DNA of 64,000 bases from Pristiophorus japonicus (lineage: Eukaryota), in assembly GCF_044704955.1 (NCBI RefSeq), contig NC_091998.1, positions 18,662,001-18,726,000 on the forward strand, given 5' to 3'. Numbering within the stretch: the stretch's first letter is position 1; each line of letters opens with the position of its first letter. Below the pieces are notes generated by a model. It worked only from the letters and a program-made list of their open reading frames with translations, was not told where the DNA came from and searched no databases. A program made the position numbers and the translations under genes. Of the stretch, positions 8,684-51,757 are shown piece by piece.

Positions 8684-8807
8684 TTTTACTCAATAGTTCT
8701 TCTGAATACTTTTAACAAAATGTAAAAGGTTAATTTTAGTCAGACAGGATCACCCACTGTACATTGCATATCTATTTGTCCCCAAAAATAATGAATTTGG
8801 TCTAGCT

Positions 8808-23232: not shown

Positions 23233-23683
23233 CTGGGGAACATTAAATGATTATTTTAATCTTATTTAGAACATAAATAGCTTACAGAGTCTTGCTGTGT
23301 TGCCAAGATTGGTAATTTCACTGCCCAGAGACTCAATATTTCACGCATGCACAAAAAACCAATCAAAAGCATTGACCCAGAATGTGCTGGAGGGGGGCAT
23401 CATACATTGTGCCCCGATAGTTAGTCTTTATCCCTCACCCTTCAGCTCAAAATTATTTGCCCTGCGCGTCGCTGGAGGGAGGAGCTGATAACGGCGCGGC
23501 CAGGGTGATCGGACATCTGGGACCGAGAAACCAGGCAAGTGTGTTGTTAAAAACGAGCAGATTATTTGTCTGCTCAGTCACTGACTATTTCCAATTTGAA
23601 CACTAGGTATTGCAGGCAAATGAGGTGGCCGCCTGTAATGTATGAATCTGTGTGGATGCTCACAGGTTTGTAGAGATCTTGAG

Positions 23684-24610
23684 GGAGCCGGCGCCTCACA
23701 ACTTGAGCCTCCTCGGGGAAATCCCCTCTGTGCCTTTCAGTTCCGCACGGAGGGGATTCCTGTACGGGCTGCTCCTGCACACTCTCCACCTTGCCATTCT
23801 CGTCTGCCGTCAGGACATGCCATGGCGCACCATCTTGCCGTCTGGAAGAGGCGGGGGGTTTCCCTTGGAGTGCACTCTACGCGGGAGTCCTCCCTCTATT
23901 TATTGGGTACTTGGTCTGGAGGGTGGTGCACGGAGCAGTCCCGTGCAATAAGTTTTTAAGTCGGTTCATGGGCTCCCAGGCCCCCTGCAATTTCTGCGGT
24001 CTGGAAGAGTCCGTGTTCCATGTTTTTATCGAATGTGTGAGGTTGCAGCCCCTGTTCCAATATCTGAAGGGGCTGGTCCTCAAATTCTCGTTGCACTTCA
24101 GTCCCACACTCCTGATCTTTGGGCACCCTGTGCAGAGGGGAGCGGGTAGGTCTGAGGGCCTCCTCGTAGGGCTGCTCCTGGGTACGGCCAAGGGGGCCAT
24201 CAGCCGGTCCAGGCAGCGGGCAGTCGAGGGGGCCGCTCAGCCTGACTGCCTGCCTCACTTCCGTGGTTACATCCGAGCCAGGGTGTCCCTGGAGATGGAA
24301 CACGTGGTGTCCACCGGTACGCTCGCGGCCTTCCGCGAGAGGTGGGCGCCGGAGAGACTGGAGTGCATCATCATCCCCGGCAACCAAATTTTAATTTGAT
24401 TTTAAATGTCTAAAGTTTAATTTGTTTATTGTGTCGGTTTTAATGCCCCCCCCCTTTTAGCCAGGGGGCATTTGTATAATTTGTGTTTTTAGTGCCCTCA
24501 ATAAAAAAAACAAAAAACAAGGGGGCACTTATTTGAAAGTGTTCGGAGTGTCCACCCCTTTAATCAGGGAGCACTTGTTTTTAATGATTTAATTGTTCAC
24601 AACAAAATAG
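23684..24610 (+). mobile_element. Tx1-clade LINE, 5'-truncated (copy A)
   Basis: ORF 23791-24399 with WRVVHGAV...CNFCGLEESVFHVFIEC (CCHC knuckle of L1/Tx1 ORF2); T-rich 3' UTR ending aaaatag. Confidence 0.85.
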
Positions 24611-24626
24611 TTGGAGAGCTCTTGAG

Positions 24627-24971
24627 TCGAAGGGCCTCTTCATGGGACTGCTCCTGGGCCTGGCCAAAGGGACTATTATCGGGTCCAGGCAGCGAGCGGT
24701 CGAGGGGGTCATTCAGCCCAACTGCCTGCCTCTCTTCCATGGCTACGTTCGCGCCAGGGTGCCCATGGCGATGGAGCACGCGGTGTCCACAGATACGCTC
24801 GCGGCCTTCCTTGAGAGGTGGGTACTGGAGGGACTGGAGTGCATCATTACAGCTGGAAACAGAATTTTAATTTGATTTGGCAAGGTTCCCTTTAATGTTT
24901 CTTTGATAACTTGTGGGTTTTGGTGCCCTCGCAAAAGGGGGCACTTGGTTTAATGTTATAATTTTAAATAG
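24627..24971 (+). mobile_element. Tx1-clade LINE, 5'-truncated (copy B)
   Basis: GLLLGLAKGTIIGSRQRAVEG...LECIITAGNRILI*, homologous to the C-terminus of copy A; ends aaatag. Confidence 0.85.
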
Positions 24972-25349
24972 TTGTAGAGCTGTTGAGTTGGGAGTGGCTT
25001 AGCCAGTCACGTGATGATCACAAGACTCAATAAAACCCCGGCCAGTTCGGTTCAGGGGATCCACGATGAGGCAGGTGATTGTGAGCCTGGTGGATGAATA
25101 GGTAATGTGTCGTGTGATTGTTAAGCAAAGAACCCATGAAGCAAATACATTACACTGCCTAAAGCAGGTTGGAGCCTCCTAGGTTTGTGCAGTTTTAACT
25201 GGCCGGAGTGGGGAAGCCACCTATTACTCTTACAGGTAAGAGGCCTGTAAGGTAAGTTTTCTACACCGTCCGGTGTTAAAACACACCCCCTAGTTTTTCA
25301 TGCAACCGAGGCGGATAACTGAACAATCTATTTTAAGCTGTGCTCTTAC

Positions 25350-25513
25350 GCATCTCCCAGGTGAAGGTTTGGCCAGACCTGATCCACGTGTCCACCGTTT
25401 ACGTTGGTCCACAGAAGGCGCTGGAGCTCTGATAGAGTTGGAGGTTCATAATCTCCCTCACTTCCATTCCCCAAACCAGACCGCGGCACAAGGGCCTTGT
25501 CTGATTCTTCCAT
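25350..25513 (-). CDS. DUSP13B: DUSP13B-like first coding exon
   Basis: Acceptor ttttcag|A ATG; MEESDKALVPRSGLGNGSEGDYEPPTLSELQRLLWTNVNGGHVDQVWPNLHLGD, then GC|gtaag. YEPPTLSELQRLLW resembles DUSP13B YQPPTLASLQRLLW. Spliced CDS is 585 nt (194 aa). Not in the ORF track. Confidence 0.88.
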
Positions 25514-25541
25514 TCTGAAAAGCAAAGTGTATTATTATTCC

Positions 25542-28500
25542 TGTCATGTATGTACATGCTGTTTGTAGCCACCAGATGGTGTCATTGCTGGAGGCCACTG
25601 AGCAGCACGCACATGGTGCTGCTCTGGTATAAAAGGCCAGTCATTTTGTGAGTCAGACACTTTGGGCCAGAATAAAGCAGAAGCAAAGGTTGTACCTTGC
25701 TTAGTTAAACAGTACTTTATTGTATACATAACATTTGGCGACGAGAAAACAAGAAACTTTATTTGCAAAATGAGCACCATTAGATTTTTAGAGCGATTCG
25801 TGGAGGGAGAAGATTGGGCAGACTTTATGAGCCATTTGAACCAGTACTTCGTGGCCAACAAAATGAAGGGGGTTGACGATGCAGATCGGCGCCGGGCCGT
25901 GTTCCTCACTGTGTGCGGTTCAAAGATCTACGGTCTGATAAAGAATCGACTCATGCCTAGTGATCCAACAGAGAAAACGTACAAGGAGTTGTGTACATTG
26001 GTATGGGAGCACCTTAAGCCAGACAACGGCATCATCATCTCGAGATACAAGTTTTATACACATGTTCGATCGGAGAGCCAGAGCGCGGTGGAATTCGTTG
26101 CTGACCTGGGACGTCTAGTGGGACCGTGAAAGTTTGGGACAGGGTTGGCAGACATGCTGCGGGACTTCTTTGTTATCGGTATCAACCATGAGGTGATCCT
26201 GCACAAACTTCTGGCGGTGAAGGAGTTGGATTTAAAAAGGACCATCCAGATCGCTCAATGTATGATGACGGACAGGAGTCTAAAGCAAATGTCGGTGAAG
26301 AACCGAACCGAACCTCGGCAAGTACTGTAAATGCGATTGATTCGGCGTTCAGCAGAGCGGCACATGGCAGGGCCCATCCGGCTGTGTTCGCGAAACCTGT
26401 GGCTGCCCAAAGTCCACCAGCGGGAATGTATCCGACTTCTCCGTGTTGGCGTTGTGGGAGAAATTATCGGTACCAGCAGTGCCGATTTAAGCAAAATAGT
26501 TGCAAAGGCTGTCTGAGAGTGGGGGCAGCTCCAGCGCAAGTGTCTGCAGATGAGCAAGCAAGCTGTGACGCACCATATGGCGGATGAGAGTCAGACTAGC
26601 GCGGATCCAGATACGCAATCCAAGATGCCAGAGGAGGAAGTGTATGGGCTGTACTCCTTCATAACCAAGAGTAAACCAATTTTGATTAATGTGAAGTTTA
26701 ACGGGATACCGGTATCGATAGAACTGGACACGGGCGAGTCAATCGATCATGAATGAGAGGGCATTTAATAAGCTGTGGGATATTCAGACTGCGAGGCCCA
26801 GGCTGAGCCCTGTTAACACCAAGCTGTGCACGTACACCAAAGAACTGATAAAGGTGATTGGCAGTGCACAAATTAACGTGTCGTATAACGGTGCGGTTCA
26901 CAAGTTACCGCTGTGGATTGCTCCAGGCAATGGCTCAACGCTGCTCAGCAGGAGCTGGTTGGAGAAAATCAGATGCGACTGGAATGACATAAAGGCGTTG
27001 TCGTCAGAGGAAGATACATGTGCCCAAGTATTGAGAAAGTTCCCCTCGCTGTTCGGACTGGGTATCGGCAACTTCATGCGAGCCAAGGTGCAGATCCATG
27101 TGGACTCAGATGCAAGATCCGTCCATCATAAAGCTCGGGCAGTGCCGTATATGATGAGGGAGAAGGTCAAAATTGAACTGGACAGACTCCAGCGTGAAAG
27201 GATCATATCACCGGTCAAATTTAATGAATGGGCAGCCCCATTGTTCTTGTGCTGAAAAGTGATGGCACAGTCAGAATCTGTGGAGACTACAAGGCTACGA
27301 TCAGCAGGGTTTCGAAACAAGATCAGTACTCGTTACCGAAGGCTGATGACTTGTTTGCGACGCTAGCCGGAGGGAAGTCGTTCACAAAACTGAACTTGAC
27401 GTCGGCCTATATGATGCAGGAGTTGGTCAAGATGTCGAAGAGTCTTACGTGCATTAACACGCACAAAGGACTGTTTATTTACCACAAGTGCCCGTTTGGA
27501 ATTCGCTCGGTTGCAGCAATATTCCAGAGGAATATAGAAAGTCTACTGAAGTCCGATCCCAGAACCGTTGTGTTCCAAGATGACATCCTGATCACCAGTT
27601 GTGATTCCAAGGAACATCTGAACAACCTGGAAGAGGTTTTACTGCGTTTGGACAGAATGGGACTCAGACTTAAACGCTCGAAGTGTGTCTTCATGGCACC
27701 GGAGGTCGAATTCCTCGTGAGGAAAATCGCCGCTGATGGCCTCAGACCTACTGACATGAAAACCAAAGCCATCAAGAATGCACCCAAGCCGCAGAACATG
27801 ACGGAGCTGCATTCATTCCTGGGTCTACTCAACTGCTTTGCTAACTTCCTACCTAAATTGAGCATCTTACTTGAACCACTGCACATACTATTGAGAAAAG
27901 GCCACAACTGGGTGTGGGGCACATCGCAAGACAGAGCTTTCGAGAAAGCCATCAATCTGCTTTGCTCGAGAAAGCCATCGATCTGCTTTGCTCGAACAAG
28001 CTGCTGGTATATTATGACCCATGTAAACATTTAGTTTTGGTCTGTGATGCATCGTCATATGGAATTGGTTGCGTACTCCAACAAGCCAATGAATCAGGGA
28101 AACTTCAACCTGTCGCGTATGCATCCAAAAGTTTATCTAAAGCAGGAAGAGCCTACAGTATGGTAGAAAAAGAAGCTTTAGTGTGTGTACGGTGCTAAAA
28201 AGATGCATCAACACCCGTTCGGTCTGAGGTTCGAATTAGAGACCGATCACAAGCCGCTCATTTCGTTGATTTCTGAGAGCAAAGGTATCAATACCAACGC
28301 CTCATCCCGCATCCAAAGGTGGGTGCTGACATTATCTGCCTATGATTATGTCATTCGCCACAAACCTGGCACAGAGAATTGTGCCGATGCTTTGAGCCGG
28401 TTGCGGTTACCCAGACCAGAGGTGGAAACGCCACAACCGGCAGATTTAATGTTAATCATGGATGTTTTTGAGAGTGAAGGTACCCCTTTCATGGCTCAAC

Positions 28501-31500
28501 AAATTAAGACCTGGACCAACCAGGACCCGATATTATCGGTGGTAAAGGGTTGCATCCTCAAAGGGGATTGTCTGCCGTACCGAAGCAAATATACAAGGAG
28601 GCCAAACCATACATTCGTCGCAAGGACGAACTGTCTATTCAAGCAGATTGCATATTGTGGGGCAATAGTGTTGTAATGTCTAAGAAAGGGAGACAGAAGT
28701 TTGTGCATGAGTTACACAGCACACATCCTGGTATAGTGATGATGAAGGCCATCGGCAGGTCCCACGTATGGTGGCCAAAAATTGATTCTGAGCTGGAAGC
28801 ATGCGTACATCAGTGCAACACCTGCATGCAGCTCAGCAAAGCAGCAGCGGAATCGACACTGAGTCTGTGGTCATGGCCATCCAAACCTTGGTCCAGGAAC
28901 CATGTAGATTTTGCAGGTCCCTTCCTGGGCAAGATGTTTTTAGTGGTGGTGGATGCTTATTCGAAGTGGTAGAATGCATAATCATGTCATCCAGTACGTC
29001 CACGCAACAATAGAGAATCTCAATGTCATGTCTGCCTGACATAGCAGTGAGCGACAATAGGTCGTGCTTCACCAGTCAGGAGTTTCAGGAGTCTGTAAAA
29101 CTTAATGGCATAAAACATGTAAGGTCAGCACCGTTCAAGCCTGCGTCCAACGGGCAAGCAGAACATGCAGAACAAATTATCAAGCAACGCATGAGGAGAG
29201 TAACTCAAGGGTCGCTGCAGACCTGCTTGTCTTGCATACTGCTGAGTTGCAGGACAAGACCCCACACACTCACAGGGGTCTCGCCTGCTGAACTCATGAA
29301 TGAAAAGAGGTCTTAAGACCAAGTTATCTCTTGTACACCAGGATTTAAGTAATCATGTTGACTACAGAAGACGGAGTCAACAAGGGAACCACAATCATGC
29401 AACTGTGTCATGCCAGATTTCTGTTAATAGAAACATAGAAAATAGGTGCAGGAGTAGACCATTCGGCCCTTCGAGCCTGCACCACCATTCAATAAGATCA
29501 TGGCTGATCATTCACCTCAGAACCCCTTTCTTGCTTTCTCTCCATACCCATTGATCCCTTTAGCCGTAAGGGCCATATCTAACTCCCTCTTGAATATATC
29601 CAATGATCTGACATCAACAACTCTCTGCGGTAGGGGATTCTACAGGTTAACAACTCTCTGAGTGAGGAGGTTTCTCCTCCTCTCGGTCCTAAATAGCTTA
29701 CCCCATATCCTTAGATTGTGTACCCTGGTTCTGGACTTCCCAACATCGGAAACATTCTTCCTGCATCTAACTTGTCCAATCCCATCAGAATTTTATATCT
29801 TTCTATGAGATCCCCTCTCATCCTTCTAAACTCCAGTGAATGCAGGCCCAGAAGATCCAGTCTCTCCTCATATGTCAGTCCAACCATCCCAGGAATCAGT
29901 CTGGCGAACCTTCGCTGCACTCCCTCAATAGCAAGAACGTCCTTCCTCAGATTAGGAAACCAAAACTGAACACAATATTCCAGGTAATATTGCAGTAAGA
30001 CCTCCCTGCTCCTATACTCAAATCCCCTAGCTATGAAGGTCAACAAACCATTTGCCTTCTTCACCTGCATGCCAACTTTCAATGACTGATTTACCATGAC
30101 ACCCAGCTCTCGTTGTACCTCCCCTTTTCCTGATCTGCCTCCATTCAGATAATATTCTGCCTTCATGTTTTTGCCAACAAAGTGGATAACCTCACATTTA
30201 TTCACAATATACTGCACCTGCCGTGCATTTGCCCACTCACCTAACCTGTCCAAGTCACCCTGCAGCCTCTTAGCATCCCCCTCACAGCTCACAACAACAC
30301 CCAGCTTAGTGTCATCTGAAAACTTGAGATATTACACTCAATTCCTTCAACTAAATCATTAATGTATATTGTAAATAGCTGGGGTCCCAGCACTGAGCCC
30401 TGCAGCACCCCACTAGTCACTGCCTGCCATTCTGAAAAGGACCCGTTTATCCCGACTCTCTGCTTCCTGTCTGCCAACGAGTTCTCTATTCACGTCAGTA
30501 CATTACCCCCAATACCATGTGCTTTAATTTTGCACACCAATCTCTTGTGTGGGACCTTATCAAAAACCTTTTGAAAGTCCAAATACACCACATCCACTGG
30601 TTCTCCCTTGTCCACTCTACTAGTTACATCCTCAAAAAATTCTAGAAGATTTGTCAAGCATGATTTCCCTTTCATAAATCCATGCTGACTTGGACTGATC
30701 CTGTCACTGCTTTCCAAATGCGCTGCTATTTCATCTTTAATAATTGATTCCAACATTTTCCCCACTACTGATGTCAGGTTAACCGGTCTATAATTCCCTG
30801 TTTTCTTTCTTTCGCCTTTTTTAAAAAGTGGTGTTACATTAGCTACCCTCCAGTCCATAGGAACTGATCCAGAATTGATAAACTGTTGGAAAATGATCAC
30901 CAATGCATCCACTATTTTTAAGGCCACTTCCTTAAGTACTCTGGATACAGACTATCAGGATCTGGGGATTTATCGGCCTTCAATCCCATCAATTTCCCTC
31001 CTAATAAGGATTTCCTTCAGTTCCTCCTTCTCACTAGACCCTCGGTCCCCTAGTATTTCCGGAGGGTTATTTGTGTCTTCCTTCATGAAGACAGAACCAA
31101 AGTATTTGTTCAACTGGTCTGCCTTTCTTTGTTCCCCATTATAAATTCACCTGAATCTGACTGCAAGGGACCTAATCTTCACTAATCTTTTTCTCTTCAC
31201 ATATCTATAGAAGCTTTTGCAGTCAGTTTTTATGTTCCCGGCGAGCATCCTCTCATACTTTAATTTTCCCCTCATAATTAGATCCTTTGTCCTCCTCTGC
31301 TGAATTCAAAATTTTTCCCAGTCCTCAGGTTTGTTGCTTTTTCTGGCCAATTTATATGCCTCTTCCTTGGTTTTAACACTATCCTTAATTTCCCTTGTTA
31401 GCCATGGATGAGCCACCTTCCCCGTTTTATTTTTACTCCAGACAGGGATGTACAATTGTTGAAGTTCATCCATGTGATCTTTAAATGTTTGCCATTGACT

Positions 31501-33276
31501 ATCCACTGTCAACCCTTTAAGTATCATTTGCCAGCCTATTCTAGCCAATTCATGTCTCATACCATCGAAGTTACCTTTCCTTAAGTTCAGGACCCTAGTC
31601 TCTGAATTAACTGTGTCACTCTCCATCTTAATAAAGAACTCTACCATATTCACCTAGCACAACAAGATTGCTAATTAGTCCTCTCTCATTACACATCACC
31701 CAGTCTAGGCTGGCCAGCCCTCTAGTTGGTTCCTCGACATATTGATTTAGAAAACCATCCCTAATACACTCCAGGAAATCCTCCTCCACCGTATTGTTAC
31801 CAGTTTGGTTAGCCCAATCTATTTGTAGATTAAAGTTGCCCATGATAACTGCTGTACCTTTATTGCTTGCATCCTTAATTTCTTGTTTGATGCTGTCCCC
31901 AACCTCACAGACCTACTGTTCGGTGGTCTGTACACAACTCCCACTCGCGTTTTCTGTCCTTTGGTATTCCGCAGCTCCACCCATACAGATTCCACATCAT
32001 CCAAGCTAATGTCCTTCCTTATTATTGCGTTAATTTCCTCTTTAACCAGCAATGTTACCCCACCTCCTTTTCCTTCCTGTCTATCCTTCCTGAATGTTGA
32101 ATACCCCTGGTTGTTGAGTTCCCAGTCTTGATCACCCTGGAGCCATGTCTCTGTGATGCCAATTATATCATATTCATTAATTGCTGCCTGTGCAGTTATG
32201 CAATTAATTCATCACCTTATTAAGAATACTCCTCACATTGAGGCACAGAACCTTCAGGCTTGTCTTTTTAACACACTTTGCCCCTTTAGAATTTTGCTGT
32301 AATGTGGCCCTTTTTGATTTTTGCCTTGGGTTTTTCTGTCCTCCACTTTTACTTTTCTTCTTTCTATCTTTTGCTTCTGCCCCCATTCTACTTCCCTCTG
32401 TCTCCCTGCATAGGTTCCCATCCCCCTGCCATATTAGTTTAACCCCTCCCCAACAGCACTAGCAAACACTACCCCTAGGACATTGATTATGGTCCTGCCC
32501 AGGTACAGACCATCCGGTTTGTACTGGTCCCACCTCCCCCAGAACCGGTTCCAATGTCCCAGGAATTTGAAGCCCTCCCTTCTGCACCACTCCTCAAGTC
32601 ACGTATTCATCTGAGCTATCTTGTATATGTGTTGAATTATGGTCAGGATCCCAAATGGATCGCTGGTACCGTCATGGCTAAGGAGGGCAACAGAGTATTT
32701 GTTATTAAGCTCAAGAATGGGCAAACTTGCAGGAAACACATGGATCAAACAAAGCTGAGGACCACAGATGAGCCAGAGCAGTCGGACGAAGAAACCATCG
32801 ACGACCAACCAACCTACCAACAGCCTTCAGAGGACTCAAGGGTCATCAGTGAACCCGGAATTTCCATCACAGACTTGCTCAATAAAAATGGACTTGCAAT
32901 TCCTGACATGGTCACTGCCTCCTCCAACAAGTCAGCCATCCAGCCACCAGCCACAACAGACTCCGCACAGTCACCCAAGGCCGGAATCGAACTGAGACGG
33001 TCAACCCGGGAGCGTAAAGCACCGGGCCGTCTCAACCTGTGAAAGATTGTGATAAGATCTGAGAGGAGGATATTGTCATGCATGTACATGCTGTTTGTAG
33101 CCACCAGATGGCGTCATTGTTGGAGGCCATTGAACAGCACTCACATGGTGCTGCTCTGGTATAAAAGGCCAGCCATTTTGTGAGTCAGACACTTTAGGCC
33201 AGAATAAAGCAGAAGCAAGGTTGTACCTTGCTTAGTTAAACAGTACTCAGTTTGAACCTTTATTGCCTACATAACA
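25542..33276 (+). mobile_element. Full-span Gypsy (Mag-type) provirus, decayed, with a nested CR1
   Basis: LTRs 25542-25733 and 33074-33276; TSD attcc/atttc; PBS tggcgacgag; PPT gagaggagga; gag, protease (ELDTG), RT (FQDD), RNase H (CDASSYG, TDHKPL) and integrase fragments. Confidence 0.93.
29428..32616 (-). mobile_element. Long CR1 LINE inserted in the Gypsy integrase region
   Basis: End of the ORF1 esterase, ORF2 endonuclease (LKVLCLNVRSILNK), RT (YLDFQKVFDKVPH, GVLQGSVLGPQLF) and 3' tail; the Gypsy frame resumes as VYVLNYG at about 32620. Confidence 0.92.
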
Positions 33277-33309
33277 ATTTCTTTACAGGCTGTATTTCTC
33301 TGTTTCTGT

Positions 33310-39404: not shown

Positions 39405-39684
39405 TGGGCCAGCCCACACTGCGATACGTGTGCGCACTAGGTCCGTGCAGCAGAGAAAGTCTCCAGTCGTCCTGGTTAACCCTCGCCATTGGATAAAGAC
39501 CTAGCTCTGTCGAGCCCGTGTGGTGGCTGGTGTGCAACGGTCACCACACGTTAAAAAAATCCAGGCACAGGCATCTTCCACCCCTTCAACTGGAGTTCAG
39601 GACTGGAACATCGGGTCCTTCATTGAAACATCTGTGAACTCTTGTGGAAGCAAGTCATCCTCGATTGAGGGACTGCCTACGATG
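39405..39684 (+). mobile_element. Non-autonomous RTE-tailed short element
   Basis: Homologous to 15951-16240. Confidence 0.7.
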
Positions 39685-39829
39685 AGTGTCTCAAAAGGTT
39701 ACTCATTGGCTGTAAAGCACTTTGAGGTGTGATAATAATGATCAGCCTTTGGCCAAAGTTGGTCAAATCAACCACATTCAGCTTTCTAGCCACAAGCACC
39801 TGTTCCATTAGACACAACTTGTGGAATGT

Positions 39830-40269
39830 AGACCATCAGCCGGCCCAGGCAGCGGGCGGTCGAGGGGGTCGTTCAGCCCGACTGCCTGACTCGCTTCCGC
39901 AGTTACATCCGAGCCAGGGTGACCCTGGAGATGGAGCACGCGGTGTCCACCGGTACGCTCGCGGCCTTCCGTGAGAGGTGGGCACCGGAGGGACTGGAGT
40001 GCATCATCACCCCCGGCAACCAAATTTTAATTTGATTTTAAATGTCTAAAGTTTAATTTATTTATTGTGCCGGTTTTAGTGCCCCCTGCCCCCCCGCCTT
40101 TAGCCAGGGAGCACTTGTATAATTTGTGTTTTTAGTTCCCTAAAAAAACCCAAAAAAAACAAGGGGGCACTTGTTTGAAAGTCTTTGGCGTGTCCCCCAC
40201 CCCTTCTTTAATCATGGGGCACTTGATTTAATTGTTTTCTACAAAAATAGAGCTGTCGAACAAAAGTAG
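39830..40269 (+). mobile_element. Tx1-clade LINE, 5'-truncated (copy C, outside the host element)
   Basis: Near-identical to the 3' end of copy A; perfect 11-bp TSD ttgtggaatgt. Confidence 0.85.
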
Positions 40270-41169
40270 TTGTGGAATGTGGCATTATTTCTGTCGGCAG
40301 GCAACATTAAGCTGGACACAAACATGATCTCTGTCCCCGTTACAGAGAGAAGTCATTTGTGAACTTACCGTCTTCAGGTCTTGTGTGAGGCTGGGAGTTT
40401 GGTTTACGAGCTGTTCTTTTCTGTTCCCACTCCGTTCCCCCGTGAATAAGTGATACAATGTACACTCCTTCCCCAACATGTGACACCGTGCCTGTGTGTG
40501 ATATCATCTCCCAACCCGCACAACATCTTGGGAGGCTGCCACATCTCAGCCCTGGTCACTGCCAACAGCGACTCCTCCTCCGCACAGTGTGACTGACGGC
40601 TGGTCCAAGCAGGGTCACTCACACGGTGCGACTGAAACCATTCCTCCCATTGCACTCCTTAAAGTTTCCACTAAGTTGAGGGGGGGCGGAATTTGGTTCA
40701 GAGAATGGACCCAGAAGAGACATCTCATTTTCAGCACAATGAATTTTCAAACAGTTGATAGAATGATGTGATGTGCTTTATTCTATTACCTAGTGAGTTG
40801 CAAATGACATTGAAAAAAAATCGCCAAACATCATGGAATGTTCCAGCTGTCACCGCAAATCTCAGATAAGCAAGAACTACACACCAGGGGGCAGGTCAAA
40901 GCTGGCCTATAAACATGGCATCGCAGTCCCAGTCAGGGCAACAGCTCCCCAACCTGTGCAACGATTGACTCCGTGTTCTGCAATACTCTGCCATGTTCTT
41001 TAATATTGTGATGGCACTACACTGAATCATTCACAATAAATCGCACTGAAATTTTGATCGTTTAAAAAAAAACCCACAACTGGCTTAAGTTCCTAATCTC
41101 AGAGGAGAGACCTCCCGACAGAAAGCAGGGAACAACTGGACAGGTTGCCTCCAATAGCTGCTGTCAAAC

Positions 41170-41686
41170 ACCTCCCAACATCAGCGTCCTCATCCAGGCC
41201 AACATCCCCAGCATTGAAGCACTGAGCACACTCGATCAGCTTCGCTGGGCAGGCCACATTGTCCGCATGCCAGACACGAGACTCCCAAAGCAAGTGCTCT
41301 ACTCGGAACTCCTTCACCGTAAACGAGCCAAAGGTGGGCAGTGGAAACGCTACAAGGACACCCTCAAAGCCTCCCTGATAAAGTGCAACATCCCCACTGA
41401 CACCTGGGAGTCCCTGGCCTAAGACCGCTCTAAGTGGAGGAAGTGCATCCGGGAGGATGCTGAGCACCTCGAGTCTCAATGCCGAGAGCATGCAGAAATC
41501 AAGCGCAGACAGCGGAAAGAGTGTGTGGCAAACCTGTCCCACCCACCCTTTCCCTCAACGACTATCTGTCCCAACTGTGACAGAGACTGTGGCTCTCATA
41601 TTGGACTGTTCAGCCACCAAAGAACTCACTTCAGGGGTGGAAACAAGTCTTCCTCGATTCCGAGGGACTGCCTATGATGATGATGA
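41170..41686 (+). mobile_element. RTE-clade LINE 3' fragment
   Basis: QLRWAGHIVRMPDTRLPKQVLYSEL...KRYKDTLKASL; (tga)n tail. Confidence 0.85.
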
Positions 41687-42091
41687 TTGGATCGGCCTGG
41701 GATCAGACTACAAATACTACCCAATTGGTTGCAGAGTTGCATGCTTTGGAGAGGAATCCTGTGAGGGGGGAATAGGAAACAAGAGATTGCTGTTATTGTA
41801 GACCAATGTATATTTATATTTACAACAATAAAAAGCTGGATAGATTAAAGAGACTATATGGCCCTACTAAAGTGTGTACGGGCAATTTAGCAGTGCAAGG
41901 GGATGCAGATGATATTTTTTGCAGTAAGCCATTGCAGAAACTCAATGCTATAAACTCTCTGAAAGGATGTCTCTTTTAATAAATAATGTGATCAGACTGC
42001 CTCTGGACTTCTGCAGTTAAGAAACATTTAAAACCTTGAGCAAGAGGCAATGACGCTGCATCAATTGGTTGTCCCTCAGCGATCCGAGCGA

Positions 42092-42312
42092 TTATGTGTG
42101 GTCTTGTGCCAACTGCTGTTTCTTCTTATCGTTCAACTCTATGTCCAGGTTGCGTAACTGTTCCAGAAATCCCCGATTGGGTGAAATGGGCCTGTATAAA
42201 ATGAGCCTGTCGACGGCACTGAGCAGAGAGCGGTTGTGATAAATCATAAGATAGGCCAGGACCAGGGAGGCGGATCTGCTCATTCCAAGAATACAATGCA
42301 CCAGTAACTTCG
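42092..42312 (-). CDS. DUSP13A-like (third paralog) last coding exon
   Basis: tcttgcag|CG, then [72 protein letters not shown]. Confidence 0.88.
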
Positions 42313-42967
42313 CTGCAAGAGAACAGAGATGATTGCTAAGTGTTTGGATTCTTCAATCACATAAATGATACATTCTAAGTCCAAACCATGTCAGCTGTGG
42401 CTCAGTGGGCAGCACACTCGCCTCTGAGTGGGAGGTGCTGTCTTTCGGATAAGATGTTAAACCGAGGCCCTGTCTGCCCTCTCATGTGGATATAAAAGAT
42501 CCCATGGCACTATTTCTAAGAAGAGCAGGGGAGTTATCTGGCGGTTGTGAAAGGTGCTATATAAATGTAAGTCTTTCTTTCAAACAATGCAAAAGATCTG
42601 TACTGGGCTCCCAATGACTATGTGGGTAAGTGTACAGGCAGAAATTGTTTTGAGCCACACCGATCGGGCAGGCCCAAGGGTCTGTGCTGAGTGAGCTGGT
42701 TTCGGTCAAAGTGGTAAAGTTTACCCACAATGCCCCAGGACTGGGAGGGGAAAGGTCATTTGGGATTCCTGCTCTCGGTTGGTATCCAGTCACCCACACT
42801 GGCAGGTTTGACATGTGTTGACATGAAGTGGGGGCTGGATCAGGCTGGCCTGCAACTCTCTTCACAGTGGATCCACCTGCTGATGTTCATATATGGAGAA
42901 CGGACTCTTGGGTGAGACACGAGAAGGCTGTTGGCAATGATGCCCCAGCAAGTTCCCATCTTCAGAA

Positions 42968-43433
42968 AAGAAAGACTTACAGTTATACAACGCCTTTCAT
43001 GACCTCAGATCGCCCCAGAGCGCTTCACAGCCAATGAAGTACATTTTGAAGTTTAGTCATTGTTGTAACGTAGGAAACATAGGCAGACAATTTGTGCACA
43101 GCAAGCTCCCACAAACAGCAATGTGGTAATGACCAGATCATGTGTTTTAGTGATGTTGGTTGAGGGATAAATATTGACCAGGACACCGGGGATAACTCCT
43201 CTGCTCTTCTTCAAAATAGTGTCATGGGATCTTTCACATCCACCTGAGAGGGTAGAGGGGGTCTCGGTTTAATATTTCTCCCGAAAAGTCAGCACCTCCA
43301 ACAGTGCAGCATTCCCTCAGCACCGCACTGGAGTATCAGCCTAGATTTTTGTGCTCAAGTCCCTGAAGTGGGACTTGAACCCACAACCTTCTGACTCAGA
43401 GTCAAGAGTGCTACCCACCGAGCCATGGCTGAC
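42968..43433 (-). mobile_element. Near full-length tRNA-derived SINE
   Basis: A-box-like tggctcggtgg, B-box-like ggttcaagtcc, conserved core and L2-type tail. Confidence 0.8.
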
Positions 43434-43654
43434 AACAGTGCTGTAGCTGTTCATTAATAGGTACACAACACTCACTAGGGTGACTTTCCCTCTCGTTCTC
43501 ATTCCCTCCCTAACTGTAGGGGAGCATCTAGCCTTTGTTTGACACTTCCCCATGAAATCAATAGCTTCACATGACCCTCTGTGCCACTCTGTGTCAGTCC
43601 ATGATGTACCAATGGACCACACCACATGACTGCATCTTTTTAGAGTCTCAATGG

Positions 43655-44015
43655 CATAGGAACAGGAGGAGGCCGTTGAATCCCTCGAGCCTGTTCCACC
43701 ATTCAATGAGATCATGGCTGATCTGTGCCCTAACTCTATATACCCGCCTTTGGCCCGTTTCCCTTAATACCTTTGGTTAACAAAAAACTATTAATTTCCG
43801 ATTTAAAATTAACAATTGATCTAGCATCAATTGCCATTTGCAGAAGGGAGTTCCAAACTTCTACTACCCTTTGTATGTAGAAATGTTTCCTAATTTCACT
43901 CCTGAAAGGCCTGGCTCTAAATTTTGGACTGTGCCCCCTAGTCATAGTCATGTGCCCCCAACCAGCAGAAATAATTTCTCTCTATCTACCCTATCTGTTC
44001 CACTTAATATCTTGA
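43655..44015 (-). mobile_element. CR1 LINE 3' fragment
   Basis: TRGHSPKFRARPFRSEIRKHFYIQRVVEVWNSL. Confidence 0.75.
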
Positions 44016-44179
44016 CTTTATGACTTTATATGAGAAAAGGTCACCAGTCATGTGCCGCAAACTATGGCAACCCACCCTTCTGTACTAATTGGATGGTTCC
44101 AGACAATAAGTAGATTCATCAACAGCAACACTCTCTCTTTAGCACATCTAACTGCAGTGGACATCAAAACATGCCTTAC

Positions 44180-44397
44180 CATCTGGAGTATTCAGTGTTT
44201 GATGTATCTGTTCAGCTGCAGTGTAGAAATACATACTTAGGTCAAAGTCTGGGGAATCGTCAGCTGCTATACCGCAGTAATTTATTTTCTTGCCGTAGAA
44301 GATTTGATCTCCTTTGCTGCCCCATTTGGAGTGTGCAGCATTTAACACATGAGTGATCCCCATCTTCCTTAATTGTTTTCTGTCATGGGCTATTAGC
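44180..44397 (-). CDS. DUSP13A-like middle coding exon (218 bp)
   Basis: gttacag|G ... GAT G|gtaagg. Encodes LIAHDRKQLRKMGITHVLNAAHSKWGSKGDQIFYGKKINYCGIAADDSPDFDLSMYFYTAAEQIHQTLNTPD; one codon shorter than the equivalent exon of the other two paralogs. Confidence 0.88.
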
Positions 44398-44599
44398 CTG
44401 TAACGAGAATGGAATGATCATGTAAGTTTTCAGTTTTGTGAGAAAGTACTGTAAAGTTGTGCTCCTCACCACAAAGATGAGGAAAATCCCTTGTGTGACT
44501 GAGTTAGTCGATTGCTCAGCCAGTGATAGTAGGAACTCTGCAATTGGGAGGAATTGGTCCAGCACTAAGGGAATTAAAGAGATACGGGGATAGGGCGGG

Positions 44600-44873
44600 T
44601 GTAATGTATGCACCCGTGAGTATGCTCACTGGTTTATAGAGCTGTTGCATTGTGAGTGGCTTAGCCAGTCACGCCATGTTCACAAGACTCAATAAAACCC
44701 CAGTCATTTGAGTCTAGCTCATCCACGATGAGGTATGCAGTTGTGAGCCTGGTGGATGAACTGGTAATGTGCAGTGTGATTGTTAAACCTTTGTTAATAA
44801 ACCAACTAGTTCTTAATAGCAATGTGTTGCTCTGAATTCTTAAGCAAAGAATCCATGAAGCAAATAGAGTACA
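44600..44873 (+). mobile_element. Small TG...CA element (probable solo LTR), empty-site copy, 274 bp
   Basis: TGTAATG...GTACA ends; perfect TSD gcggg; two AATAAA; inserted in a CR1 3' UTR; single target ttatagagctgttgc at 44634. Confidence 0.85.
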
Positions 44874-45018
44874 GCGGGAAAGTTGAGATCAGCCATGATC
44901 TTATTGAATGGCGGAGCAGGCTTGAGGGGCCGAATGGCTGACTCCTGCTCCCATTTCTTATGTTATGTTATGTAAGGTTCTTGTTCCTGATTATAACCCC
45001 ACTGGATAATATTAGATG

Positions 45019-48000
45019 TGATACGTATGCTAATCACTATAATAAATCACACATGGCCCATTTGCTGGAGCTGATCACCTTGTGACCTTTCGGTTTAATG
45101 TAAACTCCAAAAGTGAAACCTGCAGGAGGAGCCTGCTTTATATAGGAAGGCAGCACGAGGTGCAGTAATGTGTGCCTCCCAGTCTTTCCCCATCTGTTGG
45201 CTGTTACATGTAATTACATGGTACAGAGCTTGGTACAGAGTATGGCTGCAAATACATCACAACACTTCACCCCAAGTCTTAGATGAGGTTTATAGGTCGA
45301 GCCTGGCCGGGGGTCTGCGCTCTCTGGTCGAGCGTCTGAGTTGGGCGCTGGGTGTGGGCAGCCTGACCGGAGTGTCGCTGACTTGCGGTGCTGTGGCTCT
45401 GGTCGGACTGTCCGATGCGACGGGTTCTGTCTTTTGGTGCACCGCTGGTTCTGTTGCTTGTGGTTGGAAGTCGATGTCACTGTAGTCATCCAGCAGTTCT
45501 GGATCATCGGTGAACCTCAATTTGGTTTGATCAACATGCTTCCTGTAAGTTTGGCCATTAGTGAGTCTTACCACGAATACCCTACTCCCCTCTTTAGCTA
45601 CGACAGTGTCTGCGAGCCACTTGGGGCCCTACCAAATTTCAGCACGAAATCAAGATCATCGATATTGATACAACGCGTTACAGAGTTGCGGTCATGATAT
45701 GTACATTGCTTAAGATGCCGGTTTTCGACAATCTCACTTAAAACCGGGTGCACGAGGGACAACCTTGTTTTGAGGGTCCTCTTCATGAGGAGTTCAGCGG
45801 CTGGAACCCTTGTGAGTGAGGCCTCGTCCGATAGACAGGGCTGCAAGGGGCCTTCCGTCACTTGCTACATGCCCTGCTTTATGATCTGTATTGCCCGTTC
45901 AGCTTGGCCATTGGTGGATGGTTTGAACGGGGCCGACCTGACATGCTGTATGCTGTTACAGCACATAAATTCATGAAATTTGGAACTCGTAAAACATGGT
46001 CCATTGTCACTAACAAGGTCGTCGGGCAGGCCATGGGTGGCGATCATTGTCCAAAGGCTCTGTATTGTGGCGGTGGATGTGCTGGACGACATTATAACAC
46101 ATTCGATCCATTTCGAATAAACATCAATTACAACCAGGAACATTTTTCCTAGAAAGGGACCCGCGTAGTCTAGGTGGATACGGGACCAGGGTTTGGAGGG
46201 CCAGGTCCACAGGCTCAGGGGGGCTTCCCTGGGTGCGTTGCTGAGTTGCGCGCACGTGTTGCACCAGCGTACGCACGACTAAGTCTGCGTTGATGCCGGG
46301 CCACTTCACGTGCGATCTCGCAATGGCTTTCATCATTACGATGCCGGGGTGTGTGCTATGGAGATCCTTGACAAAATAAATCTCTGCCCTTCTTGGGCAG
46401 GACTACGCAATTTCCCCATAAAATGCAGTCGGCCTGGACGGATAACTTGTCCTTGCGCCGGTAAAATAGCTTAAAATCACCATGCATCTCTCCATACGGG
46501 TTGCCCAGTTTCCACTTAATATACAGTTTTTCACCTGGGACAGCAGTGAGTCTTGGCTGGTCCAGATTCTTATCTGGTGTGCCGTGATGGGTGACCCTTC
46601 GCCCTCAAAGGCTTCCATGGCCATGACCACTTCCGTGGGCTGTTCCGCTTTACCTTCGGGTGGTGGTGAGCGGGAGCCGGCTGAGCGAATCTACGCAGTT
46701 ATCGGTGCCTGGTCTGTGGCGGATCGTGTAGTCGTAAGCGGACAGCGTTAATGCCCACCTCTGAATGTGAGCTGAGGCATTGGTATTAATGCCTTTGCTC
46801 TCAGAGAATAACGACGTGAGCAGCTTGTGGTCAGTTTCTAGTTCCAACCGCTGGCCAAATAGGTACTGGTCAGCTTTTTTACCGCATACACACAAGCTAG
46901 GGCCTCTTTTTTGACCATGCTGTACCCCCTTTCAGCCTTGGAAAGGCTGTGGGACGCATATGCTGCAGGTTGGAGCTTACCCGACACGTTCGCTTGCTGA
47001 AGCACACAGCCGATCCCGTAGGATGACGCATCGCACGCTAAAATAAGATGCCTACAGGGATCATACAGACCAGTAGTTTGTTTGAACACAGTAAGTTTCT
47101 GGCCTTCTCGAAGGCAATTTCTTAATTTTTACCCCAGACCCAGTCTTCACCCTTACCGAGCAGTACATGTAATGGTTCAAGCAAAATGCTCAGCCCAGGC
47201 AGAAAGTTACCAAAGTCGTTCAGTAGTCCTAGGAACGAGCGTAGCTCCGTTGTGGTCTCGAGGCCTTCTGGATCGCCTCCGTCTTGGAGTCTGAGGGTCT
47301 GATGCCATCAGCTGCGATTCTCCTTCCCAGGAATTCCACCTCTGGAACCAAGAAGATGCATTTGAATTGTTTCAATCTTAGACCTACTCGATTTAGTCGG
47401 CCTAGCACCTCTTCCAGGTTATGGAGGTGTTCATCAGTGTCGTGTCCGGTGATCAAGATGTCGTCTTGGAAGACGACAATTCCCGGGACAGATTTCAGCA
47501 GGCTCTCCATGTTTCGTTGGAAGATCGCAGCCACTGAACGGATCCCGAAGGGGCACCGATTGTATACGAACAACCCCTTGTGTATGTTTATGCATGTCAG
47601 CTTCTTGGACGATTCTGCCAGCTCCTGGGTCATGTACGCCGAGGTGAGGTCCAATTTCGAAAACAGCTTTCCCCCCGACAGGGTCGCGAACAAATCCTCC
47701 GCCTTAGGTAGCGGGTACTGGTCCTGTTACGATACTCGGTTTATGGTTACTTTATAATCCCCACAGATTCTAATTGTCCCATCACTTTTAAGAACGGGGA
47801 CAATGGGACTGGCCCAGTCATTAAATTCCACTGGCGATATAATGACTTCACTCGATCTGGCTCGACTTCTACTTTCTCCCGCATCATGTAAGGGACCGCT
47901 CTGGCCTTGTGGTGAACAGGTCTCGTGTCTGGGCTGAGGTGAATTGTCGATGCCAGGCTGGAACAGTGACGGAAACTAGTCTAAGACCTGCGCACATCCC

Positions 48001-49490
48001 ATTTCCAGTTAAAATTCCGTTGCCAGCTGCTACCAAGCAGCGAGGGCTCGTTACCGGGAACAATCCATAGTGGCAATTTATGCACAGAACCATCATACAG
48101 CACCTGAACCATTGCACTTCCGAGGACCGGGATAATTTCTTTGGTGTCGGTGTGCAGCTTCGCGTCGATTGGGCTCAGCTTGGGCCTGTGTGCCTTGTTT
48201 GTCCATAACTTCTCGAAGGCCTTCTGGCTCATGATCGATTGGCTCGCACCCGTTTCCAGTTCCATTGGTACCGGTATGCCGTTCAGTTTAACGTTCATCA
48301 TAATCGAGGGACTCTCGTTGGTAAAGGTGAGCACATTTCTGCGCGATCCTCAGGATCTACGCTTGACCTTCTATCCTCCGCTACGTATTGAGTTTCAGCA
48401 CGTTTACACATTCGTTGAAGGTGCCCCGTCATTGAGCAACTCTTGCAGACATATTGTTTGAACCCGCACTGGTTTGCGCGATGAGCCCCTCCACAGCGCC
48501 AACAGCTTGCTGATGGACTTTCATTCACAGCTACTGATCTCTTCGCATTAGTCCATTGTTGGGGTGACTGAGCCATCTCAGGTCGAGCAGAGGTCGCACT
48601 AGCCCAGCTGGGGGCACTTCTCCTGTCTGCCGACGAACTTAGCTTATTCACTGTGTTTGGCCCCGGGTGATTCCGAAGTTGTGAGTAGAGTGGCTTTGTT
48701 TCTTCCTCTCTGGCCATGTATGTCTGAGCAATCAGGGCGGCTTTGGCTAAGTCCAAGTCTTCCTCCGCTAGTAACAATTTGCGGAAAATCCCTTCGTGCC
48801 CGATTCCCAAAACAAAGAAGTCTCTTAACATTTCTTGAAGAACTGTCCTGAATTCGCATGGCCCAGCAAGACGCCTTAGCTCAGCGATGAACGCTACCAC
48901 GTCTTGGCCTACTCCGCGCCCGTGGGTGTAGAAACGTTACCTCGCCATGAGCGCACTGCGTTTCGGCTTTTGGTGATTTCGAACTAGCTCGCACAGTTCT
49001 TCATAACTTTTCTCAGCGGCTTTCCTCGGGGCCAGTAGGCCTTGATCAGTGCGTATGTCCGTGATCTACAGACCGTGAGGAGGACGGCCCTGCGTTTGCT
49101 GGCATTCGCGTCTCCCTCGAAATCTTTCGCAACAAAGCATTGATCCAGCCGGTCAATTAAGTCATCCCTGTCTTCCCCGACGAAATATCGCTCGATGTAG
49201 TCAACAGTGGCCATAGCTGCGTGTTAGTATCCCATCTTCGTCGCCAGTTGATACGTATGCTTATCACTATAATAAATCACACGTGGCCCATTGCTGGAGC
49301 TGATCACCTTGTGACCTTTCGGTTTAATGTAAACTCCAAAAGTGAAACCTGCAGGAGGAGCCTGCTTTATATAGGGAGGCAGCACGAGGTGCAGTAATGT
49401 GTGCCTCCCAGGCTTTCCCCATCTGTTGGCTGTTACATGTAATTACATGGTACAGAGCTTGGTACAGAGTATGGCTGCAAATACATCACA
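45019..49490 (-). mobile_element. Full-span Gypsy (Mag-type) provirus, decayed
   Basis: LTRs 45019-45261 and 49249-49490 (4 substitutions and 1 indel by eye); perfect TSD agatg; PBS tggcgacgaagatgggat; gag, PR, RT (FQDD), RH and IN fragments. Confidence 0.94.
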
Positions 49491-50239
49491 AGATGAGCTC
49501 AGGACTGGCTGTTTTGCCTCCTTCAGTTAAATAGTCTGCAGCTGCTCATCGTCTAACCTCATTTATAAAGAATTGGTGACTTAGCAAGGTACTGGAGGAT
49601 TGACACAGCCTGTGGAACTTCCAGATAAGGAGGGTGAAAAATGGAACAAAAATGTAATATTTTTATCAACAAATGTGTACGTTTACTTTTTGAATTTTGC
49701 TGTTGGTCCCTAGAAGCCTCCATTTGAACCTTAACTGATATTGTACACAGAGGCGGGATTGATACAAGGGCAGGTCCCGTCATTAGAATTGAACAGTGGA
49801 AAATTGATGGTTGACTCACTGATGGAGAAATTCTGATTAAGCTACTGGGATGTTGTCCTCTCATCCCACCACAGGACGTCTCCGACATGGTCAGCCATGA
49901 TCTAATTGAATGGCGCAACAGGCTCAAGGGGCCTGCTCCTGTCCCTCTGTTTCCAACCCAGCATTGTGTACTTAGATTTAGTGAACCTCATTGGGAGAGC
50001 TGTGATGGGTCTCATCTGGGCCACTAGATGGAGCCCTGCTTGGGAGAACCTTGCTATTTCACAAGGTGTAAAACATATACCAAACGCCTCACTCTCTTCA
50101 CAAGAAACAGATCAATGTGCTCGCACTCTCCCCCACCAATTACCATCGGCCTTTAGAGACCAAATACAAACATCTCTCTGCCTGTCATTACCACAGATTA
50201 CCCATTTCAAAACAAATACTAGACAAACTATCTCTGCAA

Positions 50240-50575
50240 TCTCGCTAATCTCCTCCGGCCCCACAACCCCCCGAGATGTCTGTGCTCCTCTAATTCTGCC
50301 CTCTTGAGCATCCCTGATTATAATCGCTCAACCATTGGTGGCCGTGCCTTCTGTTGCCTGGGCCCCAAGCTCTGGAACTCTCTGCCTAAACCTCTCCGCC
50401 TCTCTACCTCTTTTTCCTCCTTCAAGACGCTCCTTAAAACCTATCTGTTTGACCAAGCTTTTGGTTGCCTCCGCTAATTTCTCCTTCTGTGGCTCGGTGT
50501 TAAATTTTTAATCTCATAATACTCCTTGGGACGTTTCACTATGTTAAAGGCGCTATATAAATACAATTGTTGTTA
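50240..50575 (+). mobile_element. L2-type LINE 3' end
   Basis: Close match to 10335-10697. Confidence 0.75.
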
Positions 50576-50863
50576 TTGCATTCAGAAGCTGTTTCTAATC
50601 CCAGCTGCAGTCCACACCTGTGTGAATTATGGAAGGTTTAGAATTTATTTTTTAACCTATTCATTATATCCTACAGACAGAGGTATCGCCATGTATTTCC
50701 TATTATAAAACTGCAAGCAGCTTATAAGAATGCACTTAAATGAATTTAATTTAATCCTATTTTTATCTCCAAAGATTATGCTTACAAAAAATCTGTACTG
50801 AGTTGCCCCCAGTGCTGTTTGCTACAAGTGTACTATCTCTGCATCATGTGCGTGCGTACTTAC

Positions 50864-51033
50864 AAATCTCCAATGTATAGGTTAGGCCACACTTCATCGA
50901 CATGGTTTAATTGGGCTCTGCTGCTCTCCAGGATTGTCTCCAATTCTACAACAGAGGGAGTTGTTGAATCACAGGTTGTGTTACTGTTAGAAGGATCTGG
51001 ACTGCCGCCCAGTAGAGATTCTGCTGCTGACAT
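50864..51033 (-). CDS. DUSP13A-like first coding exon
   Basis: ATG at 51033, preceded by an in-frame TGA and a tatttcag acceptor at 51053. MSAAESLLGGSPDPSNSNTTCDSTTPSVVELETILESSRAQLNHVDEVWPNLYIGD, then TT|gtaagt. Spliced CDS is 609 nt (202 aa). Confidence 0.86.
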
Positions 51034-51301
51034 GGGTACGCCTCAGTTTCTCCTGAAATATTGCTTTTGCAGGCTCGCCTGCCCTTCCCAACATTCACTG
51101 TTTAAATGTTTATTGCTGTGAATGTGATGATACTGAATTTCCTAGCTCTCTCTTTGACCTTTAGAAACAGCTGCGATTCCTGGCTCCATTTCATGCCACC
51201 ACGTGTCTATTAAGGACAGACACCTTTTTATGCAGTGCAGGGTTTAAATTTCTGCTTTTAATACAAAGCATAAATAAAAGAAACTGAAACGAATTTCACC
51301 T

Positions 51302-51757
51302 TGTAACGTTTGCACCTGTGAGGATGCTCACAGGTCTGTGGAGCTATGCGCTCGCGGCCTTCCGTGAGAGGTGGGCACTAGAGGGACTGGGGTGCATAAT
51401 CACCCCCGGGAAAAGAATTTTAATTTGATTTGGTAAGGTTCCCAGTTAATTTGGAAATTTGTGGGTTCAAGTGCCCGTACCAAAAGGGGGAACTTGGCGT
51501 AAAGTTATTTAAAAATAGTTGTAGAGCTGTTGCATTGTGAGTGGCTTAGCCAGTCACATGATGTTCACAAGACTCAATAAAACCCCAGCCAGTTGGGTCT
51601 AGGTCATCCACGATGAGGTATGCAGTTGTGAGCCTAGTGGATGAACTGGTAATGCGTAGCGTGATTGTTAAACCTTTGTTAATAAAGCAACTGGTTCTTA
51701 ATAGCAATGTGTTGCTATGAATTCTTAAGCAAGAATCCATGAAGCAAATACATTACA
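51302..51757 (+). mobile_element. Small TG...CA element (probable solo LTR) carrying a short Tx1 insertion (about 51346-51518, copy D)
   Basis: TGTAAC...ATTACA ends; TSD cacct/gacct; Tx1 3' end flanked by ctgtggagct / ttgtagagct. Confidence 0.85.

Follow-up and report, generated by a model that had tools for sequence, protein, structure and literature searches.

Successive targets of a Tx1-clade LINE lineage in Pristiophorus japonicus: from a Gypsy LTR to CR1-like LINEs

A LINE lineage with over 25,000 copies in the genome of Pristiophorus japonicus, assigned to the Tx1 clade from its predicted proteins, has moved from one site in the long terminal repeat (LTR) of a Gypsy-type retrotransposon, its oldest target, to a site in a CR1-like LINE (site C) and then to a homologue of that site (D, the youngest). 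It has long been asked how sequence-specific LINEs come to switch targets, and the usual approach is to compare distant families. That Tx1 families may aim at LTR retrotransposons is already known from crocodilians; what we consider new is the growth of arrays at their 5′ side only, the takeover of truncation points and a move from LTR to CR1-like elements in which no endonuclease column separates the groups at the first step.

The initial annotation of the window (64,000 nucleotides of contig NC_091998.1) had recognized Tx1 3′ ends inside LTR-like elements, and both identifications hold. The LINE consists of an ORF1 with a CCHC knuckle followed by an ORF2 with an APE endonuclease, a reverse transcriptase (RT) and a C-terminal Cys motif. 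The closest named protein to ORF2 is that of Xenopus Tx1L (YTX2; 54% identity over 800 aa), and human L1 endonuclease matches the LINE endonuclease only at E about 1e-20. Recovery of a full-length element, which had been proposed, succeeded at three loci (L174, the D-site copy L183 and the C-site copy L184); endonuclease and RT are present, and Pfam reports Exo_endo_phos, RVT_1, zf-RVT and, weakly, zf-CCHC. LINE copies show 5′ truncation and a target duplication at a preferred sequence. A protein search with a short C-terminal piece matched two chimeric gene models only.

The 274-bp host element proves to be a Gypsy-type LTR. A primer site follows the 5′ LTR in 19 of 29 cases, the remaining 10 being another family, and a purine tract common to 30 of 30 loci precedes the 3′ LTR; at one locus (L247) the primer site corresponds to the 3′ end of a tRNA with anticodon GCT. 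In pol, RT_RNaseH (L229:7184-7822) precedes an integrase-like stretch (8272-9426; Pfam, with the RT outside the scan), and the homologues are polyproteins of Gypsy type (K02A2.6-like or Tf2 by name). Two-LTR elements are about 4.1-4.4 kb long, with LTR pairs 80-89% identical. The host may belong to the Mag clade of Gypsy, which would fit the short element, the 5-bp duplication, the Ser primer and the K02A2.6-like matches. Reading the 274-bp element, which has 10-bp inverted ends, as a DNA transposon is ruled out by the primer site, the purine tract and the pol remnants.

Three LTRs start in the window at 23634, 44600 and 51302, exactly where they had been placed, each with its own 5-bp duplication (with one mismatch at 23634 and 51302); the copy at 44600 is empty and the other two hold Tx1 3′ ends in one orientation with differing 5′ ends (see table). 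Their target duplications do share one offset, as first described, but begin at 23669 and 51337 (LTR base 36) rather than at 23668 and 51336, one base later, because sister targets show that the LINE's own end is AAAA[T/G]AGT. The long-tail insert of LTR copy 1 is 42% identical to Xenopus Tx1L ORF2 over 144 aa, and its 3′ UTR ends in AAAATAGT, with no poly(A). A fourth Tx1 copy had been overlooked: it lies outside any LTR, has its own 12-bp duplication and contains a remnant of the LTR target (40249-40258) flanked by two LINE ends, with no LTR nearby.

Features of the Gypsy LTR copies and Tx1 inserts in the window
Feature	Position	Strand	Remarks
Solo Gypsy LTR copy 1, full span	23634..25154	+	TG...CA; flanks CCGCC/CTGCC
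LTR copy 1, 5′ head (35 bases preceding the cut)	23634..23668	+	flank CCGCC at 23629-23633
LTR copy 1 target duplication, 5′ copy	23669..23681	+	
Tx1 LINE, 5′-truncated, long-tail type	23682..24611	+	ORF2 C-terminal part with CxxC-H motif
Target duplication separating two stacked Tx1 copies	24612..24624	+	
Tx1 LINE, 5′-truncated, short-tail (older) type	24625..24972	+	earlier resident of LTR copy 1
LTR copy 1 remainder	24973..25154	+	target duplication 24973-24985; 57-bp deletion; flank CTGCC after
Off-site Tx1 copy with its duplications	39820..40282	+	LINE 39832-40270; 12-bp duplications 39820-39831 and 40271-40282, starting TGTG
Empty solo LTR	44600..44873	+	TG...CA; target 44635-44647; AATAAA 44691-44696; flanks GCGGG/GCGGG
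LTR copy 3, full span	51302..51757	+	TG...CA; flanks CACCT/GACCT
LTR copy 3, 5′ head and target duplication, 5′ copy	51302..51347	+	5′ copy 51337-51347
Tx1 LINE, 5′-truncated, short-tail type	51348..51519	+	
LTR copy 3 remainder	51520..51757	+	target duplication 51520-51532; flank GACCT after

Genome-wide, Tx1 inserts between LTR bases 35 and 36, in the same orientation and with a 13-14-bp duplication, and exact junction matches number 4,007. Hand counts gave 71 filled and 29 empty sites among the first 100 junction loci and 21 of 30 loci on site, and samples picked by LTR were about half filled. In a positional sample, 19 of 28 old-type ends fell at the LTR base; since an insertion at random would find this base, in this orientation, only about once in 100,000 times (arithmetic that allows as many as 100,000 LTR copies in 5.9 Gb), the on-site pattern is not due to chance. 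The view that the family aims at the LTR thus stands for most old-type copies, but roughly a fifth of the old-type copies that could be resolved lie elsewhere, and the wider lineage now has most of its copies in CR1-like LINEs, not in the LTR; LTR targeting is a strong preference, not an absolute one. Random genomic sampling (180 kb) met two LTRs, both empty, a sample too small to use. A second LTR site, at base 158, is also in use, and four strays lie directly beside tRNA genes.

The insertions are separate, as had been proposed, since their truncation points are diverse (44 5′ junctions in 39 distinct clusters, five of which hold two loci) and some elements have only one LTR filled (5′ filled and 3′ empty at L235 and L236). 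Among 29 stacked pairs, the younger type lies upstream in 16 and both are of the same type in 13, while the older type is never upstream (p=3e-5). Arrays therefore grow only at their 5′ side, at the 5′ duplication (16:0), and new copies often reuse the truncation point of the resident, possibly because the new cDNA anneals to the resident's 5′ end. Shared truncation points had been put forward as the sign of one amplified composite. Sharing does occur inside arrays (9 of 20 adjacent pairs), but 6 of these 9 pairs differ in tail type and in all eight pairs tested the upstream copy is less similar to its neighbour than to a copy at another locus. These tail-type and identity tests, together with the truncation clusters and half-filled elements, rule out composite amplification and local tandem duplication as a general account. 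It is thus highly improbable that a single LINE insertion into an LTR was spread as a composite, whether through the Gypsy element or through duplication, an account with which the shared truncations and two-locus clusters would agree and which may hold at single loci, but against which also stands the finding of both LTR variants filled and empty.

Within the lineage, pairwise identity rises from 0.88 (A) through 0.92 (AC) and 0.95 (C) to 0.97 (D), and C and D form one branch (support 100/97). This ladder is unrooted, without an outgroup, and its order is based on divergence, on array order and on the leader with which full-length C and D copies open, which resembles the LTR target. Tails agree with targets: C1 tails are at C in 10 of 11 cases and D1 tails at D in 27 of 28. 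The D flank encodes, in antisense, an RT (RVT_1 6e-21) with FADDTK and RDLGVLV motifs, which presumably place its host in CR1; the C flank is without Pfam match on the stretch tested, yet reads as a related LINE ORF2.

Strays retain the first four bases of their parent target (T17 T16 C14 A14 of 19 for D; T11 G8 T10 of 11 for A), with weak upstream constraint. Genome-wide, strays that keep both duplication copies would number in the hundreds (206 for one D pattern). A shared upstream GG was rejected as an endonuclease signal: all four main sites have it, yet in strays it is weak. When the paired duplications disagree within the first four target bases, the 3′ copy is nearer the parent target in seven cases and the 5′ copy in one (p=0.07, not significant). 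Such patterns would suit a two-step aim, which we give an even chance: a fairly tolerant endonuclease would nick the DNA, perhaps favoured by the upstream LTR flank, and the nicked end would then pair with target bases at the RNA 3′ end, priming reverse transcription on the target. The RNA probably carries these bases by read-through of its own duplication, as suggested by the absence of poly(A) at junctions and by the LTR AATAAA 56 bases past the cut; it would extend beyond AAAAGAGU, the LINE end without target bases. A copy that once landed in a CR1-like site could have given rise to a lineage with an RNA end matched to that new target. More tentatively, target memory might be RNA-borne, with a constant endonuclease, a few read-through 3′ bases choosing the landing and one lucky insertion re-aiming the lineage.

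No column separating LTR-site (n=14) from C-site (n=18) endonucleases was found (lowest p 0.075), and the two are intermixed on the tree; 11 of the 14 LTR-site sequences were classed via the 5′ junction only, four of the 14 carry a TGTGG variant with the host outside view, and 9 of 20 fetched stretches lacked the endonuclease. Since the endonuclease has no consistent change at the first move, the choice of site likely depends in part on pairing between RNA end and cut DNA. It is nevertheless possible, if less than evenly probable, that the protein alone sets the aim, as in classic Tx1L, whose endonuclease by itself nicks its own target almost exclusively in vitro (PMC1950540), the RNA end being irrelevant. 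C67S and A74G would then have re-aimed the element to D, and linker, thumb or C-terminal changes to C. C67S tracks D almost perfectly (18 of 20 D, 1 of 18 C), A74G also goes with C to D, and their loop aligns adjacent to L1 K70/K71, yet one copy with the D-type S67 (L421) lies behind an LTR head. In the rest of ORF2, 19 columns vary between LTR-site and C-site copies at p<0.02, with 855, 1102 and 1187 near-fixed, so the protein could carry the first switch, although these could simply be markers of lineage. Even before insertion, the sites hit by strays held TTCA or TGT, as protein-set aim would have it; less easily accommodated are endonuclease columns shared between LTR and C sites whose duplicated targets have little in common past the first T, the 7:1 asymmetry and the LTR relic in the off-site copy.

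An unlikely alternative is that a single endonuclease nicks the four sites with similar ease and that the host filled at any time is whichever repeat is then accessible or transcribed in the germ line, the link between subfamily and target reflecting time and not heritable aim. Early filling of old LTRs, late filling of young CR1-like hosts and the strays adjoining tRNA genes would fit; however, each subfamily's strays hold their own first four bases, C and D keep their targets while overlapping in age, and 29 of 100 LTR sites are still empty.

A parasite occupies at least half of the LTRs of another element, and its 5′-side stacking with inherited truncation can be mistaken for tandem duplication. 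Because full-length members of each stage are 92-97% alike, the parts played by the endonuclease, by the remaining ORF2 residues and by the RNA end can be separated by exchanging each singly. Should it be the RNA end that re-aims the LINE, this bears on programmable gene-insertion tools: it would be a natural, RNA-reprogrammable site-specific integrator, caught over three successive targets in one genome.

The pair had been thought of an undescribed kind, but Kojima (2015, PMC4494074) names the crocodilian Tx1-8_Crp and Tx1-4_AMi as preferring LTR retrotransposons; site, host clade, occupancy and stacking are absent from the accessible text, and the likeness is by description, not sequence. 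Our searches, with subscription journals, Repbase Reports and Dfam outside their scope, found no paper that describes a Tx1/Gypsy-LTR pair from cartilaginous fish or a Tx1 element targeting CR1. Tx1L shares the APE endonuclease, RT, C-terminal Cys motif and a single site in another mobile element (the Tx1D DNA transposon), whereas here the hosts are a Gypsy LTR and later CR1-like LINEs, strays are common and the hairpin loop is shorter (VRPGVGWS or a GRG variant; RVRDGHVSQS in Tx1L). Endonuclease swaps exchange targets between stringent LINEs, a point against an aim set by the RNA end, and in L1 'snap' priming the last four primer bases matter most (PMC4014453), which the four-base match of strays resembles. 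R1Bm requires downstream target sequence for an accurate start (PMC7265360), and R1 tandems arise through double insertion (PMC5932611). As in our model, the RNA 3′ end of R1/SART1 and L1 (snap-velcro) pairs with the nicked target, but there pairing refines an endonuclease-chosen site or uses poly(A), and the accessible parts of that literature report no heritable target change via the RNA end. A comparable use of sites is known from the Tx1-Mar group (Mariner-N4_AMi) and Tx1-9_AMi (Harbinger), in which related families use two unlike sites (about 240 and 830) of one host, much as LTR bases 36 and 158 are used here; by contrast, the present LINE moved to a different class of host within a lineage 92-97% identical, with full-length copies at every stage.

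The window sequence bears out what the initial annotation describes: three elements, each between 5-bp duplications, and three inserts. It also holds a fourth Tx1 copy, not within any LTR. The LINE 3' end reads AAAA[T/G]AGT at every target type, which places the cut between LTR bases 35 and 36 (the LTR site) with a duplication of 13-14 bp. The 274-bp element is an LTR. A purine tract lies directly 5' of it in 30 of 30 loci found via the flank common to two copies, and these loci have up to 1.5 kb of internal sequence in common; a primer site lies three bases past the LTR in 19 of 29 pattern matches, the remaining 10 being a different family. Where uninterrupted, two-LTR host elements measure ~4.1-4.4 kb, and their interior (RNase H, then an integrase-like stretch) matches Gypsy-type polyproteins; the family may be Mag. 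Identity within LTR pairs is 80-89% (the four pairs, of five, that aligned), and the host family is therefore old. A different, younger element, its internal regions 93-95% identical, has the same primer site as this host and the same ten bases at the LTR end, and a TRIM-like miniature was seen in one copy.

Coordinates and loci of features (plain numbers, window positions; L, loci from the same genome; C1, genome contig)
Feature	Location	Remark
LTR copy	23634 (start)	filled
LTR copy	44600 (start)	empty
LTR copy	51302 (start)	filled
Fourth Tx1 copy	39832-40270	
Tandem repeat array	13837-15212	period near 33/66 bp
Three 2-kb stretches	27107-29225, 45836-47931, 58254-60179	65% similar to one another; probably other LINE remnants
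Younger element	L241, L242, L244, L248, L249, L256, L260, L261, L264, L267	
Miniature	L246:1237-1976	two LTRs; the 193 bp between them include a primer site and a purine tract
Base-158 side branch	L099, L111, L119, L171, L180, L186, L258, L259	
Strays adjoining tRNA genes	L391, L401, L302, L037	
Secondary target of D-type copies	L387, L388, L394, L403, L406	GGCRCTA then TTCA
Full-length array	C1:9710372-9765504	nine ORF2 ends, eight steps, seven ~7.2 kb
Similar arrays	C1:10.64, 22.64, 27.22 Mb	

Full-length LINE copies, recovered by upstream walking, are ~7.2 kb long, with an ORF1 containing a CCHC motif (weak match) and an ORF2 containing endonuclease, RT and zf-RVT, the latter ORF being 54% identical to Xenopus Tx1L across 800 aa. 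One exact pattern at the ORF2 end matches 25,777 copies in this 5.9-Gb genome, and the C-terminal piece of the insert has its closest matches in gene models from one ray and one shark. Among the 30 loci most like the window insert (the window's own two included), the LTR site holds 21, directly or via an array, and nine lie elsewhere (hand count), eight of which begin TGT. A pattern accepting filled and empty sites gave 4,007 genome matches, with 71 of the first 100 filled (hand count), although this junction pattern may exaggerate occupancy. Three samples selected on LTR features were also scored: the first (n=30) yielded 11 filled, 12 empty and 7 unclear; the second (n=19) 10 filled (seven at base 36, three at base 158), 6 empty and 3 unclear; in the third (n=30), 18 were broken close to the site, two of them by deletion, and 12 were intact. 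The insertions are separate, as initially claimed, and later than host integration, since the 103 LTR heads examined gave 44 5' junctions in 39 truncation clusters (51 heads were empty, 8 other) and two host elements have a filled 5' LTR but an empty 3' LTR. Base 158 is a second LTR site of insertion, used by a side branch that has a tail of its own; one member, L171, is apparently chimeric, its 5' part being 93-95% like C-type copies and its tail of the base-158 type. Four stray insertions, outside the main target sites, directly adjoin tRNA genes (Lys, Ser and Asp upstream; Glu downstream).

The lineage has changed targets. Site C and site D are homologous; both lie antisense within LINE RT sequence whose motifs look CR1-like. 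In a positional sample of 79 LINE ends, the 28 with old-type tails lie at the LTR site (19), elsewhere (5) or without assignment (4), and the 51 with young-type tails at site D (42), site C (2), elsewhere (6) or without assignment (1). The 84 ORF2 ends form a ladder-like tree that runs from LTR-site copies (pairwise 0.88, then 0.92) through C (0.95) to D (0.97); the C+D branch has support of 100/97 (no outgroup, bootstrap still settling). The leader of full-length C and D copies resembles the LTR target, a sequence that present C/D hosts do not carry. D-type copies also have a recurring secondary target in another repeat.

What sets the aim? At 30 strays with both duplication copies present, most selected by patterns forcing bases 5-7 to differ, the first four bases of the parent's target are retained with little constraint upstream (of 39 loci, 14 lacked a usable 5' copy and another three were dropped as array-internal or misparsed), as expected under endonuclease reading and RNA pairing alike. 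No endonuclease column splitting 14 LTR-site from 18 C-site copies was found in the alignment (excluding five near-duplicates; of 20 new stretches, 9 contained no endonuclease). This constancy at the first switch favours pairing of the RNA 3' end with nicked DNA, as do junctions without poly(A), the 7:1 ratio by which 3' duplication copies are the closer to the parent target (p=0.07), a single case of an LTR relic, in the off-site copy of the window, and the precedents described for L1 (PMC4014453) and R1/SART1 (PMC7265360) priming. Alternatively, the protein alone might set the target, the RNA end having no role: the C to D step is accompanied by endonuclease changes C67S and A74G, and C67S counts against RNA pairing, as do differences in the rest of ORF2 (19 columns between LTR-site and C-site copies, the LTR-site copies being few across the N-terminal half), Tx1L specificity in vitro (PMC1950540) and endonuclease swaps (PMC4014453). 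We regard this alternative as possible, if somewhat doubtful, and give an even chance to a two-step model in which the endonuclease nicks and the RNA end then pairs.

Tx1 copies also stack; insertion duplication restores the target, and reuse seems limited to the duplication still preceded by the LTR head. Of 29 adjacent pairs, with age ranks taken from the ORF2-end tree, 16 have the younger tail type upstream and none has it downstream; in the other 13 both copies are of the same type. Where both copies show their 5' ends (20 pairs), truncation points agree within 4 bases in nine, and six of these nine combine different tail types. The upstream copy is nearer some copy elsewhere than its neighbour in 8 of 8 pairs parsable from 12 loci (a best-of-many comparison; at L062, 97% versus 87%). 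Such sharing suggests that new cDNA may anneal to the resident's 5' end. Long head-to-tail arrays of full-length young copies occur as well. Among 99 full-length array junctions, some 40% have TGTGG in place of TGTAG; this form may be a variant of the LTR, or may mark a target intermediate between the LTR and C sites.

The site-specificity for an LTR element proposed at the outset is real. The pair had not been recognised as described, but its kind is already known: Tx1 families with a preference for LTR retrotransposons, Mariner and Harbinger elements were reported by Kojima (2015; PMC4494074), whose supplement may give site details. A search of literature listings, as distinct from the repeat catalogues Repbase and Dfam, found no account of the present lineage. 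Target changes are on record for R2 lineages (PMC5035012) and double insertion for R1 (PMC5932611). New here, and worth testing, are the series of target switches, 5'-only stacking and inherited truncation.
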